Positions 44,024 through 47,900 of a stretch of DNA of 48,925 bases are shown in pieces. Location of the stretch: NCBI GenBank assembly GCA_944372435.1, contig CALVZD010000003.1, positions 1 to 48,925 on the forward strand. The letters run 5' to 3'. The position numbers were made by a program, and so were the translations under genes. A model generated the notes under the pieces. It was not told the origin of the DNA, did no database searches, and saw only the letters and a program-made list of their open reading frames with translations. Within the stretch, counting starts at the first letter, position 1; each line of letters starts with the position of its first letter. This DNA comes from an uncultured Clostridia bacterium. Its GTDB lineage: Bacteria > Bacillota > Clostridia > Christensenellales > UBA1242.

Positions 44024-44063
44024 CTCTGCGCCAAACGCTAATTTTACGAATAGGTTGGTGGCA
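44024..44063 (+). repeat. Outer inverted repeat, left arm (pairs with 45639-45678)
   Basis: ctctgcgccaaacgctaattttacgaataggttggtggca versus the reverse complement of 45639-45678: 37/40 identical, core 28/29. Confidence 0.92.
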
Positions 44064-44857
44064 TCATCAAGGCCGGCGACGGCAGAAGCGGCTCACGCGC
44101 CCGCGACGGCGAAGGAGGGAATGACTCCTCAAACGGCGCCCCATATAACGGAACATATGGGGATAGTAACGGTGGAAAAGGAGGAGCCCCAGGAAGCGTT
44201 CAACTCTATAAAGGCCAGAATTTTAAAACCCTTACATCAAATGACGACGATGGCACGACAATAGTTCATGTCACAACACAAAGAGACGCTCTTAAAACAA
44301 TCGCCGCAACAGACGGCAGTCGCGGCAACGACGGCTGGGGTGGCGTGAATTTGACGGTGTATGTTCATGAAAAAAGTGGACGGGAGAATTATTCCATCAC
44401 TGACGGTTCGGGCTACTATTCTGAAAATATTGGAAGTTCCAATATGTATAATAACGGAAAATGCGTTAACGCTGAAAATCCTAATCAAGTTACCAATTAT
44501 TACACTGTCTACTCAAAATTTGAAATTGGAAGAAATGTTAGTGATGATAGAGCGAATAAAGTTAATGTTGATGAGTATAACAATGACGCAGGAAGCACAT
44601 GGTATGAAATATGCTTTTCTAGAAACAATGAGACTAATGAAGGCTGGCAAGACTACACTGACACATCAAAATCTATAGGTAATAGTGAAAGCGAGTTTTA
44701 TGCAAGAGTGTTCACTTCGGGAGCAATAAATGCGTATCTCTTTGGTGGTTTTGCTGGAACTATATATCAAACAAGCGACTTGTGCGTAAAAATTTATGTT
44801 TTGCCATATCCTTCTAACGCAACATCTTTTAGTGGCGCCAACTGCTTTGGTTTATAA
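44054..44857 (+). other. Silent, start-less alternative C-terminal cassette of the giant protein at 44943->48925
   Basis: Open frame of 267 codons preceded by TAG (44051-44053), with no RBS or ATG at its 5' end. Reads VGGIIKAGDGRSGSRARDGEGGNDSSNGAPYNGTYGD...GSRGNDGWGGVNL, matching the expressed gene, then an unrelated domain of about 167 aa. Confidence 0.88.
44315..44354 (+). repeat. Inner inverted repeat, left arm (pairs with 45353-45392)
   Basis: ggcagtcgcggcaacgacggctggggtggcgtgaatttga: 38/40 identical to the reverse complement of 45353-45392, first 26 nt perfect. Encodes GSRGNDGWGGVNL in both. Confidence 0.93.
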
Positions 44858-44903
44858 ATGCAGCTTAAACAAACAATATAGTGCCATAAATATAAAACAA
44901 TAC

Positions 44904-44937
44904 AAAAAAACATCGACTTAAAGTCGATGTTTTTTTT
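44904..44937. terminator. Bidirectional intrinsic terminator between the two alternative C-termini
   Basis: aaaaaaacatcgactt-a-aagtcgatgttttttt inverted repeat with A/T tracts on both sides. Confidence 0.88.
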
Positions 44938-44942
44938 GTTAT

Positions 44943-47900
44943 CTAAAACACCTCTGCTTGAACATAGTTGTCGTCAAAAATCTCTATATAACTAATATCT
45001 ATGTCGTATCTATTAGTTGGCCAACCAGAAAAAGTCTGATTCTCAATTGAGCCTATTCTTTTTACATACACGCCCCCGCCTGAAACTTGATTTTGACCTG
45101 AAAAACTGTGACTTTCTCCGTTTTTAGTTTTGCTTATAATTATTTCTAAACTATTTCTGTCTGCATAAGCAAAGAAATTATCTGATGATGCCCCAAGAAG
45201 AATTGCTGCACTTACGAAATAGTACTCTGCAGTTCCTCCAGTTCCTACAGTTCGATATCTGGTGCCATTTCTATAGAAAATCTGGCTTTTAATAAGATAT
45301 AGCGGGCTCTCTCTTAATCGATAAATGCCATTAAGAGAGGTTTGCAGGAGATTCAAATTCACACCGCCCCAGCCGTCGTTGCCGCGACTGCCTTGCTTAC
45401 CATCACTGCTTTCAATGACTTCGGTATCATCACCTATTGCTGTTGCACCAAAGTAATAAACATTTCCTTGACTGCCTTTATCTCCTCCAAAATATATTGA
45501 TTGTCCATCAGCGTCTGTGCCAGTATTATAATCTCCATATGTTCCATTATATGGAGCAGAGCCGTTGTCAGAGTCATTTCCTCCAACGCCGTCGCGGGCG
45601 CGGGCGCCGCTTCCGCCGTCACCAGCTTTGATGATTCCTGCCACCAAACTATTCGTAAAATTAGCGTCTGACGCAGAGTAAGCAAGAGCATAAACGTTTT
45701 GTCCATCTGAGCCGTTAATACTTGTGCCTCCTGTGTTATATGAAGTGCCATGCGAACCGTTTGTTCCAATGATCACACCATAATATTCAGCGTTGATATT
45801 TAAATCTCCACTTTCGCTATTACGCTTGCTAAATTCCCAAGCAATGCCTGCCATGTTGCCATATCCATTGTTTCCTCCTCTGGATATGTTCGACGTGTCA
45901 TGAGAGAGCGAAACAAAACTCTTGACGTTTGTCAGATCGCCCTGAACCTTATATGCGACACCACCGGCAAGATTTTTTGCATTGTTCATGTATGTCTTTT
46001 GATAAATTGTTCCATAGGTGGACACATTTGTCAAGTTTCCTGTTAAAGTTTTTCCCAACAAACCAAAATGGCCTGTGCCATTATAGAACATATCTACTGA
46101 GCCAGCAAATGCGATATTTTTAAACGCAGCGGTACAGGTTTCAGCAAACAGCGAGTCGGAGGCATCGTTATTAGCTCCTTGGACTCTGAAATTGACAATG
46201 TTGTTGTTTGTGCTGGTTATGCGACTAACACTGCTGTTCATTTGGATTTCTGGTGTTTTGCCAAAATCGAGATCTTTGGTTACAACAATAGTCGAAGAGT
46301 TTTCTCCGCCGTCTGAATCGAATCTTTCACCTAATGAAGAAATTGTGTGGGTATATTCTTTGTAATTTATAACATAAGAATATTCTCCGGAGCCTTGCTC
46401 TGCTGAGAATGTGTAGGTGGTTTCAGATCCAGTAGTAGAGTCATCTGGCTCAGTGACATTGAATACTTCTCTGTCCGGACCTGTAACGGCAACACCACTT
46501 ACATAAGCTGACATAGCATTATCAATGGTTACAGTATAAGTGCTGTCACCGCTTAAAGTGAGATTTACTGGTGATTGCTGCTCACGGTTGTATGAGATCT
46601 GCACAGTTGAGTTCAATGCTGCTCCGTCTGATAAATCAGAAGGTATATTGACTGTGATATTAGAACCTGAAGAATATGTGTATTCCAGAAGCCGCTCTGA
46701 TATGACATCGCTGTAATAGGTGTATGTGCCCAGCACACCAGAATCAGAAACTGAAGCTTGACTGCCATCACTGTTGTAGAATGTGTATCCCGTTATAGTG
46801 TCATTTGAATTTAAAACGTATGTGTAAGTTGAATCACCGAGAGTTATTTTTCCCTCTGATCCCACAAAGCATTTCACCAAAATTAGAGAGCCAGTTGCAG
46901 TTTCCATCATCAAGTAATACTGACTATCTACCTTGATAATATTGAAATCTAAAAACCAGTTGGTATCAATGCTCGGATCTGACGATACCGTTCCATTCTC
47001 ACCTATCGTTATTTTATATTGCGTGCTGCCGATTGTGAAAGAATAAGTGTTTTCACCGACTGTAACTCCAATCTGATCTGTTGAAGATGACGAGCCAACA
47101 AACACTGGCGCATGCGTCATAAGAACTGGTGCAATCGTGTATGTTAAAGTCGGATTCGTTCCAGAAGTGTCTAATAAGAATGGCTGACCGTCCACAAGGA
47201 TTAAAGAATTGCTCAAGATTGTAACATTAGAACTCTCCGTTGTTATACCCCCATTTGTGTCAAGGGTAATGCTGATCTCGCTTCCGTTTACTTTAAATGT
47301 CAGAGTCGAATCTTCGCTGGAGCCTATGATTGTTTTACCAGTCACAGGAATTTCGCCAAGATCTATATTTATTGCTTCGCTTGGATTCCTCTCGACCAAC
47401 GTGACATCACTTGTAACACCACTGCCATCTGTTGAGGCCTCGTGCGTGTGCGAACCATAAACAAAAGTCTCCGTGCCATCAATATACCATAATTCAAAAG
47501 CATCACCAGAATTATTCGTTATTTCAACAGAGTCGAGGCTGTAATTTTGAGTGTAAGTGTTGTAATAATAGTTATTTGCGCCGCTGACAGTTTGGGTCAT
47601 TGAATTAGTCACAATGTCTCCATTTTTAGAATATTGAGGTGTTACATTATCAGGCAATCCCGCAATAGTCGGATTTTCAAACTGTGGTGTTGTTACATTG
47701 TAGTTTGCTGTCACAATCAAAGCAGTAGCTGCAAGCCAAGCAAAAGCACTATCATCTTCTCCGCGTTGAGTTGCAGTTATGTCTACTTTAATCATATTTT
47801 CCTGTCTACTAAAATTATAAACAAACTTTACTCCTCCTGCCGAATCAAATGTAATAGTGTTGTTATCAAAATTTGTTATGGTTGTTGTAGTACTCTCATA

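Follow-up and report, generated by a model that had tools for sequence, protein, structure and literature searches.

A putative gene-altering inversion switch in the 3' region of a giant lipoprotein gene from an uncultured Clostridia bacterium

The 3' end of a giant lipoprotein gene in the window (the whole 48,925-nt stretch of DNA analysed) is probably part of a gene-altering inversion switch that re-tips the encoded protein. The tip-swap reading was supported by the comparison of assemblies, not by reads. A second tail (A-M2-B-T2), promoter-less and start-less, lies tail-to-tail with the giant tail across a shared terminator. In the proposed mechanism, a crossover between the inverted B blocks would flip the two tips only, and a crossover between the inverted A blocks would flip middle and tip together. 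The giant frame would then continue into the alternative module, leaving the one it had before parked as a silent cassette. Two nested zones of productive crossover, block B and the inner stretch of block A, could thus generate combinations of middles and tips (M x T). The purpose may be variation of an exposed surface tip, leading to antigenic, phage-receptor or adhesive change. The features are listed in Table 1.

Table 1. Features of the giant gene tail and of the facing silent cassette (positions in the window)
Feature	Position	Strand	Remark
Giant lipoprotein gene, 3' part (1,326 codons)	44943..48925	-	open frame
Block A' (arm inside the giant gene)	45531..45678	-	encodes ..SASDANFTNSLVAGIIKAGDGG..APYNGTYGD
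Middle segment M1, expressed copy	45393..45530	-	
Block B' (second arm in the giant gene)	45353..45392	-	encodes GSRGNDGWGGVNL
Tip T1 (136 aa), now fused to the giant gene	44946..45353	-	
Bidirectional terminator hairpin, common to both convergent 3' ends	44904..44936	.	perfect 16-nt stem
Tip T2 (167 aa + stop), now silent	44354..44857	+	
Block B, silent cassette	44315..44354	+	40 nt, 95% complementary to 45353-45392
Middle segment M2, silent cassette	44165..44314	+	
Block A, silent cassette	44024..44164	+	first 40 nt out of frame with the rest
Whole start-less cassette frame, 267 codons	44054..44857	+	open frame

The giant gene ends with a stop at 44943 (minus strand). Contigs C3 and C9 of the assembly share a 77-nt overlap, and the gene runs on into C9. 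The joined frame comprised 6,388 codons from ATG (about 6,400 residues). An orthologue of 6,281 aa was full-length on one contig and had the same N-terminus, a lipoprotein-type signal ending in Cys. The joined frame and the single-contig orthologue together confirm the giant size of the gene. Over its whole length it matched no Pfam family, and the searches of Pfam and of solved structures returned neither a family nor a solved relative for the tips. The tail is modular, in the order block A, middle M, block B and tip T. A conserved demarcation motif (GNDGWGG) precedes the hypervariable C-terminal domain of 130–180 aa, and the cassette keeps this motif. The preliminary description of the locus had spoken of binding tips; binding is a candidate function of the tips. 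The source genome (G000, 0.9 Mb in 47 contigs) was 99.3% complete. Neighbouring genes in the window encode RadC (twice), UvrB and UvrA.

All inverted repeats of the preliminary description were found again. The outermost pair (44024-44063 / 45639-45678, 40 nt) was complementary at 37 of 40 positions (93%) and the block B pair at 38 of 40. The homology in between comprised pairs of 85 nt at 80% (44053-44137 / 45561-45645) and 43 nt at 77% (44138-44180 / 45515-45557), including the perfect 16-mer at 44096-44111 / 45587-45602. As single gapped alignments, 131/164 positions were identical for block A (E 1e-35) and 39/42 for block B (E 2e-12), where the longest perfect run was 26 nt. The copies of both blocks were unique in the whole 0.9-Mb genome (E 4e-36 and 6e-11, respectively). 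At about 80% identity, the A arms of this genome are a poor RecA substrate. The differences in block A had been called mostly synonymous, and eight of 12 differing codons indeed were (counted by hand on the alignment).

The cassette was rightly described as start-less. Its frame is open over 267 codons (44054-44854), with a TAG directly upstream. No in-frame start codon occurs before position 44345, where a GTG opens the 170-aa ORF that is all the ORF track shows within the cassette. No promoter-like site was found upstream of the frame on the plus strand. Just after 44062, the cassette is 4 nt shorter than the giant gene, so that the outermost 40-nt repeat and the remainder of the cassette are in different frames. 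A crossover in these 40 nt would therefore lead to a frameshift and a truncated protein. Of the earlier proposal that a ~1.65-kb flip provides an alternative tip, the exchange of tips was supported by the comparison of assemblies; the productive crossover zones do not span the full segment. The two tips showed no BLAST similarity, in line with their description as unrelated. The predicted bidirectional terminator was confirmed, as the hairpin was scored terminator-like on both strands. Only the terminator separates the tips, with no ORF in between, and none was found in the stretch from T2 to RadC.

Swapped linkages were found in the same species group. Short ORFs were taken from a protein-database search (ids P00xx), and the module was split by middle and tip type. 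In this genome, giant-M1-T1 is expressed and M2-T2 is silent. P0066 (467 aa) consisted of giant-body sequence (176/201 identical to the giant gene, 88%) with an M1-type middle (35/46), followed by block B and T2 (157/167 identical to the silent tip). It contained the junction peptide GGVNL-TVYVHEK that had been predicted for the flipped form. T1 was found in four short ORFs (114–115/133 identical to the expressed tip). Three of them (P0003, P0062 and P0063) combined an M2-type middle (30/46) with T1 (114/133), and P0009 combined an M1-type middle (37/46) with T1 (115/133). P0063 and P0009 start in the RadC-side flank, i.e. that of the silent site, a status inferred for database proteins from N-termini and lengths. 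The suggested comparison of relatives thus revealed T2 on the giant body and T1 in silent-flank ORFs. P0004 carried a giant-like body (75/135), an M2-type middle (34/49) and a third tip, T3, which was also present in the short ORFs P0006, P0007, P0010 and P0014. The middles fell into three types and the tips into at least five, and altogether eight combinations were seen.

Given that inversion occurs, we consider it reasonably likely that it is driven by homology (RecA) between coding repeats of 40–300 nt, with no dedicated invertase. This is the most likely mechanism because no linked invertase was found, blocks A and B share no core and RecA is present (G000:C6:23988-24770, E 3e-141). No tyrosine recombinase (PF00589) matched in the window or on contig C9. 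Elsewhere in this genome, PF00589 had four matches, on C21, C13 (two) and C7, comprising one Xer-like gene beside recN plus integrase genes or fragments. G091 (100% complete) and G007 (97%) had a single, Xer-like match each. The Gin/Cin/Hin class of serine invertases was rejected, as PF00239 had no match in this genome, G006, G007 or G091. The Piv-type class (DEDD/IS110) was rejected on the basis of zero matches to PF01548 and PF02371 in this genome.

A true site-specific inversion, as in a strict shufflon, would require an unlinked recombinase acting at core sites in blocks A and B. The lone Xer-like tyrosine recombinase or an enzyme outside the recognised families would be the candidates. 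We regard this as unlikely. At least one tyrosine recombinase was present in every cassette-bearing genome checked, and the crossovers fall into two discrete conserved blocks. The available text of PMC5634654 describes Xer1, an Xer-type enzyme that inverts vpma in Mycoplasma agalactiae, and invertible regions without a nearby recombinase are on record in that of PMC9881135. However, besides the missing serine and Piv-type enzymes and the lack of a recombinase in the window and on C9, blocks A and B shared no word of at least 9 nt (an 8-mer at most). The arms of all species compared had no core in common either, and their length (40–305 nt across species) tracked the extent of coding homology.

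At the level of assembled sequences, reciprocal swapped forms exist in the sister species G006. Its reference genome carries tip E on the giant, a silent tip S and arms of 103 nt at 98%. P0012 is a 6,076-aa giant whose last 227 aa were 97.4% identical to the G006 silent frame; its tail was 90% identical to the G006 giant tail. P0013 (248 aa), which begins in the flank of the silent site, was 99.1% identical over 226 aa to the G006 expressed tail. For both proteins, the longest contig listed has the same length (476,457 nt), from which we infer that they lie on one contig. Tip E was also on the giant in P0047 (6,097 aa).

These forms bear on non-reciprocal gene conversion, in which the silent cassette would be the donor and the inversion incidental. 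Silent cassettes work by gene conversion in the pilE/pilS, vlsE and MgPa systems. The cassette here is likewise start-less and promoter-less, conserved blocks flank the variable segments, middles and tips are mosaic, and a giant-type middle was found in the cassette of another strain (X3, see below). Moreover, the arms within a genome were homogenised (both GRGADGVGG in G006, both GRGFDGVGG in P0012 and P0013), meaning that some conversion does occur. Nevertheless, P0012 and P0013 correspond to the G006 arrangement with the modules reciprocally exchanged, and P0066 and P0003/P0063 are the two products expected of a block B flip in the genome studied here. Instead of an archive of several cassettes with non-reciprocal transfer, there was one cassette per genome in six species, always inverted and convergent, which makes reciprocal exchange viable. 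We therefore rate gene conversion as the main process as improbable, and as less probable than a site-specific enzyme.

The module was found in 19 of 154 genus genomes searched, and six of the 19 (G000, G006, G007, G091, G121 and G132) had the convergent inverted cassette. Arms were 106 nt at 87% in G007, 305 nt at 96% in G091, 160 nt at 83% plus 42 nt at 79% in G121, and shorter in G132. Similar tips occupied expressed sites in one species and silent sites in another: G007 expressed and G091 silent (37% over 147 aa, E 3e-19), G157 expressed and G000 silent T2 (46% over 50 aa, E 7e-5), G121 expressed and G132 silent (E 4e-5), and G080 expressed and G121 silent (E 3e-6). The strains or species behind the swapped forms also differ in other parts of the sequence (P0066, P0012), so these forms reflect events over evolutionary time, not a rate. 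The module is very rare (40 of 1.84 billion representative proteins).

Contigs of three sequencing runs, labelled chicken gut metagenome or metagenome, were available: X1 (the source run), X2 (a second run of the same study) and X3 (another study). The flipped allele that the preliminary description proposed to look for was not seen, as no opposite-strand joint occurred in the contigs of X1 and X2, and one X1 contig spans 42500-45386 in reference orientation. This absence is weak evidence because assembly into contigs loses rare variants and does not span repeats of at least 31 nt. Contigs from X3 joined 44161 to 45533 and 44355 to 45353, on opposite strands. This strain had the giant-type middle in its cassette and a 139-nt piece at about double depth.

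The lack of a flip in the source-run contigs would also fit a decaying partial duplicate without a programmed role, with the swapped forms as rare recombination accidents. The frame-breaking 4-nt gap at the 5' edge of the cassette points in the same direction, as does the absence of a cassette in 13 of the 19 module-bearing species. P0010, P0015 and P0036 start in a shifted frame, meaning that some cassettes are frameshifted like the 5' edge here. However, the silent frames were open from block A to the tip end in all six species (122–266 codons; six-frame search), though their tips had diverged beyond recognition from their partners. (Decayed cassettes are under-sampled in the protein databases, as these list open frames only.) The mainly synonymous codon differences in block A, the recurrence of the geometry in six species with species-specific, homogenised arms, and the repeated movement of tips between expressed and silent sites also speak against decay, which we consider very unlikely.

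CDI and Rhs systems exchange C-terminal toxins with 'orphan' modules. A polymorphic-toxin-like protein would fit the giant exported protein, the GNDGWGG motif before a hypervariable 130–180-aa domain and the start-less spare copy that keeps the motif, but it is highly improbable here, as there is no ORF for immunity between or after the tips (only the terminator, then RadC), no toxin family matched in Pfam, and the spare is inverted rather than in tandem.

The locus probably belongs to the known class of gene-altering inversions and is not of the R64 or Gin type. Such programmed inversions, or 'partial intergenic invertons', are described in the available text of Milman et al. 2023 (PMC9881135) and of the preprint by Chanin et al. 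(10.1101/2023.03.11.532203), where loci without a nearby recombinase are acknowledged. As in those texts, one arm here is part of an expressed gene, and its partner is found outside that gene in a fragment that is paralogous, inverted and start-less. A flip would replace a coding part, and the target is of the kind given there (specificity-determining or surface genes). Both linkages were found, in different public assemblies, and no flipped one in the X1 and X2 contigs. In contrast to the loci covered in the same texts, the target is an orphan gene of ~6,400 codons without a Pfam family, in uncultured, genome-reduced Clostridia. There is no linked recombinase, two unrelated nested blocks would swap the tip or middle plus tip, and the orientation variants were seen by comparing different assemblies rather than inside a single long-read data set.

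The hsdS half-genes that invert in Type I restriction systems resemble the locus in that start-less inverted partial paralogs adjoin the expressed gene, with several repeat blocks that permit modular shuffling and with mosaic alleles among strains. The hsdS inversions swap DNA-recognition domains of an intracellular enzyme, usually with a tyrosine recombinase in the locus. Inverting hsdS genes are also named in the available text of PMC9881135. For Campylobacter fetus sap, the available sources describe inversion between long coding repeats of paralogous surface genes, with no adjacent invertase and antigenic variation as the result. Long homologous inverted coding repeats together with RecA were also found here. 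The sap repeats occupy the 5' ends, and what moves is a promoter, from one complete gene to another, whereas at the locus studied here they sit close to the 3' end and the tail alone would be exchanged.

In the R64 shufflon, PilV tips are exchanged by the Rci recombinase, which uses short sfx sites and is encoded by the adjacent rci gene. A constant N-terminal part with alternative C-terminal segments (T1 here, T2 on the giant body in P0066) and start-less spares are shared with this system. The differences are arms of 40–305-nt coding homology in place of common short sites, no adjacent tyrosine recombinase and one spare per genome. The Mu G segment and the P1 C segment are flipped by a serine invertase (Gin/Cin) and the Moraxella pilin Q/I switch by the DEDD enzyme Piv, each encoded next to its segment. 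Here too, two convergent alternative 3' ends lie in the putatively invertible segment with the constant 5' part outside, but neither enzyme family was found in this genome. Accordingly, the analogy to shufflons and Gin/Cin drawn in the preliminary description held for the swap geometry and failed for the enzyme: no linked recombinase was found, and no serine recombinase in the genome.

To our knowledge, coding-sequence inversions have mostly been catalogued in cultured isolates, with the recombinase encoded next door. The same inversion logic would operate here in an uncultured, genome-reduced Clostridia genus, on a gene unnamed by annotation pipelines. With apparently no dedicated enzyme, the locus may serve as a small natural system in which to study recombinase-independent programmed inversion. 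It marks out the hypervariable C-terminal 130–180 residues as the region on which diversifying pressure acts and so offers a handle on what the cells touch. In the output of gene callers, the silent cassettes appear as dozens of spurious 'hypothetical proteins' of 120–300 aa. More tentatively, uncultured Clostridia with genomes of 0.8–1.3 Mb might re-tip their largest protein by a recombinase-free, homology-driven two-tier switch, with spare tips circulating among strains. If so, the population as a whole would hold in this locus a library for the main surface through which the cell meets host, partner cell or phage, and a minimal genome would obtain programmed surface variation from general recombination alone.

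The tail of the giant gene and the silent cassette have the same modular plan, and the inverted repeats claimed in the preliminary description were recovered with the same positions and identities. The block repeats had no other copies in the genome (E values of 4e-36 and 6e-11). In the alignment of block A, the changes were synonymous in 8 of the 12 differing codons. The two tips had been described as unrelated, and no sequence similarity was detectable between the expressed tip (T1) and the silent tip (T2). A bidirectional terminator had also been proposed between them; the hairpin at this position is terminator-like both ways. 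No promoter-like site was found on the plus strand upstream of the silent frame.

Features of the giant-gene tail, the silent cassette and other loci (positions refer to the window unless a contig is named)
Feature	Position	Strand	Description
Block A	44024-44164 / 45531-45678		first module of tail, IIKAGDGG..APYNGT
Middle segment			M1 in giant gene, M2 in cassette
Block B	44315-44354 / 45353-45392		third module of tail, GSRGNDGWGGVNL
Tip			last module of tail; T1 = 136 aa, T2 = 167 aa
Silent frame	44054-44854	+	267 open codons; TAG ahead; first in-frame start is GTG at 44345
Hairpin	44904-44936		between the tips
Giant frame	contig end to stop at 44943	-	
RadC-like genes	42443-43888	-	two tandem JAB-domain genes past the cassette
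Second orphan giant ORF	14003-27175	-	3,477 aa, without Pfam family
Leucine-rich-repeat protein	3825-4658	-	small, BspA type; likely a surface protein
Integrase genes	C13:26205-28359 and C7:342-1759		phage type, at contig end

Compared with the giant gene, 4 nt are missing from the cassette after 44062, a gap that the preliminary description did not contain. Because of this gap, recombination within the outermost 40 nt would send the giant frame to a stop 65 codons on, and productive crossovers must therefore fall further in. Frameshifts were also seen in some database cassettes (P0010, P0015 and P0036).

A C-terminal motif shared by the tips was suspected. The tip profile was built from 25 other tips, leaving out the close relatives of the target (three each) and five fragments without block B. 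It scored -0.0 on T1 (shuffles 1.6 +/- 1.7), which leaves the motif unsupported, and 3.0 on T2 (shuffles -3.8 +/- 2.2, maximum 4.7), which is weak. The tips thus stay unrelated by sequence. A profile search of the PDB with alignment A5 gave no matches at E up to 1.

The assembly comprises 0.9 Mb in 47 contigs and was rated 99.3% complete; the window is all of contig C3. After joining C3 and contig C9 (77-nt overlap), the giant frame had 6,388 codons from an ATG, and the protein's N-terminus was a basic-hydrophobic signal ending in Cys. An orthologue of 6,281 aa, encoded on a single contig, had the same start. Pfam returned no family for the giant protein in any part (the tail and two C9 parts) or for the cassette. 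The order past the giant locus was two RadC genes, uvrB and uvrA, with rpoB and rpoC further on, and the locus is chromosomal. One RadC gene was present 3' of the giant gene in all relatives inspected, with a cassette or without. Directly downstream of a gene for a VirB4/TraG-like P-loop ATPase (909 aa), the 3,477-aa ORF also lies upstream of rpoB/rpoC; the pair may belong to an apparatus of the secretion or conjugation type whose substrate is giant, in this 0.9-Mb genome. Outside the 39-49% G+C range of the remaining contigs lie contigs C46 (27 kb, 58% G+C) and C47 (19 kb, 38% G+C), which may be contamination introduced in binning.

Database proteins were split at blocks A and B for the comparison of modules, and their genomic context was inferred from protein ends and the sizes of the listed contigs. 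With the cassette as query, nine short proteins were returned, and a cluster look-up supplied more. A check of which tip is fused to the gene in relatives had been proposed. In P0066 (467 aa), a giant body with 176/201 identity to this gene is followed by an M1-type middle (35/46) and T2 (157/167), joined at block B, and the protein contains the junction peptide predicted beforehand. P0003, P0062 and P0063 have an M2-type middle (30/46) and T1 (114/133), and the opening residues of P0063 correspond to the window's RadC-side flank. P0066 and this group of three are the two products that would be expected of a block-B flip of this genome. P0009 starts in the RadC-side flank and continues with an M1-type middle and T1, which is the silent-site product that a block-A flip would be expected to yield.

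In P0004, a more distant giant body (75/135) precedes an M2-type middle, and the tip is of a third type (T3). The short ORFs P0006, P0007, P0010 and P0014 have T3 as well, and tips T4 and T5 were found in P0005, P0015 and P0008. Overall, middles of three types and tips of at least five types made up eight combinations. Judged from these protein sequences, it is supported that a tip swap has taken place in this species group. With T2 alone as query, no matches were found among proteins of 469-2,000 aa; P0066 lies just under this search bound and was found only as a cluster member. Residues 1060-1326 of the giant tail gave no matches among proteins of 729-2,321 aa.

For both P0002 (a short T2 ORF) and P0036 (a frame-shifted cassette), the longest contig listed is 380,564 nt. 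The different tip of P0036 resembles T2 by eye only (unscored). Some strains may carry two silent cassettes.

The layout recurs in the sister species (G006), where the arms are 103 nt long and 98% identical; one tip (E) ends the giant gene and another (S) lies in the silent frame. The last 227 residues of P0012, a giant protein of 6,076 aa, were 97.4% identical to the silent frame of G006. P0013 (248 aa) starts in the silent-site flank, and 226 of its residues were 99.1% identical to the expressed tail of G006. The longest contig listed was 476,457 nt for both proteins, which suggests that they share one contig. In P0047 (6,097 aa), tip E is on the giant protein. At the level of predicted proteins, this is a reciprocal flip in the sister species. 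Moreover, the arms match within each genome and differ between genomes (GRGADGVGG vs GRGFDGVGG), and the agreement within genomes is a mark of homogenisation between the arms.

Logan contigs from the runs X1 (the possible source), X2 (same study), X3 (another study) and X9 were compared with the locus. These runs came from three studies and were labelled chicken gut metagenome or metagenome. The proposed flipped allele was sought as opposite-strand joints: none was present in X1 and X2, and two were present in X3 (44161 to 45533 and 44355 to 45353). The X3 strain has a cassette with the giant-type middle ahead of T2, and a 139-nt piece has roughly double the depth of its surroundings, which is what a perfect repeat would produce. 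Hence, the X3 arrangement is a mosaic and not a simple flip. Apart from the two contig joints, 44170-44336 had no cover in X3; in X9, the flanks were covered to 44063 and from 45638, with no cover at 90% or more between them. In both runs, absent cover carries no evidence. At a loose end at 45617, an X3 contig departs from the giant gene within block A' and encodes ..TFDGIIKSGD.. as in P0004. The same sample thus seemingly contains another related strain or species.

A profile search found the module in 19 of 154 genus genomes, and a convergent inverted cassette in 6 of these 19. Besides G006, the arms measured 106 nt at 87% in G007. G091 has arms of 305 nt (96%) and a further 107 nt (71%), and G121 has arms of 160 nt (83%) and, at block B, a further 42 nt (79%); those of G132 were shorter. 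The silent frames were open from block A to the tip end in all six cassette species. In the remaining 13 module-bearing species, the giant gene runs directly to RadC or to the contig end. The cassette architecture is conserved yet patchy. Expressed tips in one species were related to silent tips in another: G007 to G091 (E 3e-19), G080 to G121 (E 3e-6) and G121 to G132 (E 4e-5). T2 was related to the tip that G157 has in the expressed position (E 7e-5).

Relatives were also sought by alignment A2, which gave 596 pattern matches in metagenome contigs and 191 in genome contigs, none of them confirmed. With RadC as query, three loci were found: L029 and L030 have the giant gene and then RadC without a cassette, and L031 stops 173 nt short of RadC. 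Relatives bearing names were MAGs of uncultured Clostridia/Firmicutes. Only 40 of 1.84 billion representative proteins contained the module. Four of the 40 were long and the others were 117-462 aa, many starting at or shortly ahead of block A. 'Hypothetical protein' was the sole source name on the module-bearing database entries looked up. Given this name and the rarity of the module, the gene family is apparently new, and it is very narrow.

No recombinase gene was found within the window or on contig C9, and this genome has no serine recombinase and no Piv/IS110 enzyme. Four tyrosine-recombinase matches all lie elsewhere in the genome: one is a Xer-like gene next to recN, and the others are integrases, as genes or as fragments. 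One of the integrases on C13 and C7 is seemingly split into two ORFs; these genes may be what is left of mobile elements in a reduced genome. One tyrosine-recombinase match each, and no serine recombinase, was found in G091 (8 contigs, 100% complete) and in G007 (97% complete). No word of at least 9 nt is common to blocks A and B, no core is common to the arms of different species, and arm length varies with how far the coding homology reaches. The genome encodes RecA. From the lack of a linked recombinase, of serine and Piv enzymes and of a common core, together with homology-tracking arms and RecA, we infer that the inversion would arise when the inverted coding repeats undergo homologous recombination, and that gene conversion would keep the two arms alike. 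The single Xer-like enzyme may nevertheless have a part in it.

The preliminary description likened the locus to Rci shufflons and Gin/Cin switches. The enzymes of these systems and of the Piv systems were sought and not found, so the locus belongs to none of the three. The geometry is the same as in the Mu G segment and the Moraxella pilin switch. The nearest analogue in mechanism is the inversion between conserved coding repeats in the C. fetus sap genes. Gene-altering programmed inversions are named 'partial intergenic invertons' in two sources (PMC9881135; 10.1101/2023.03.11.532203). In kind, this locus is probably such an inversion, with both putative orientations known from separate assemblies.
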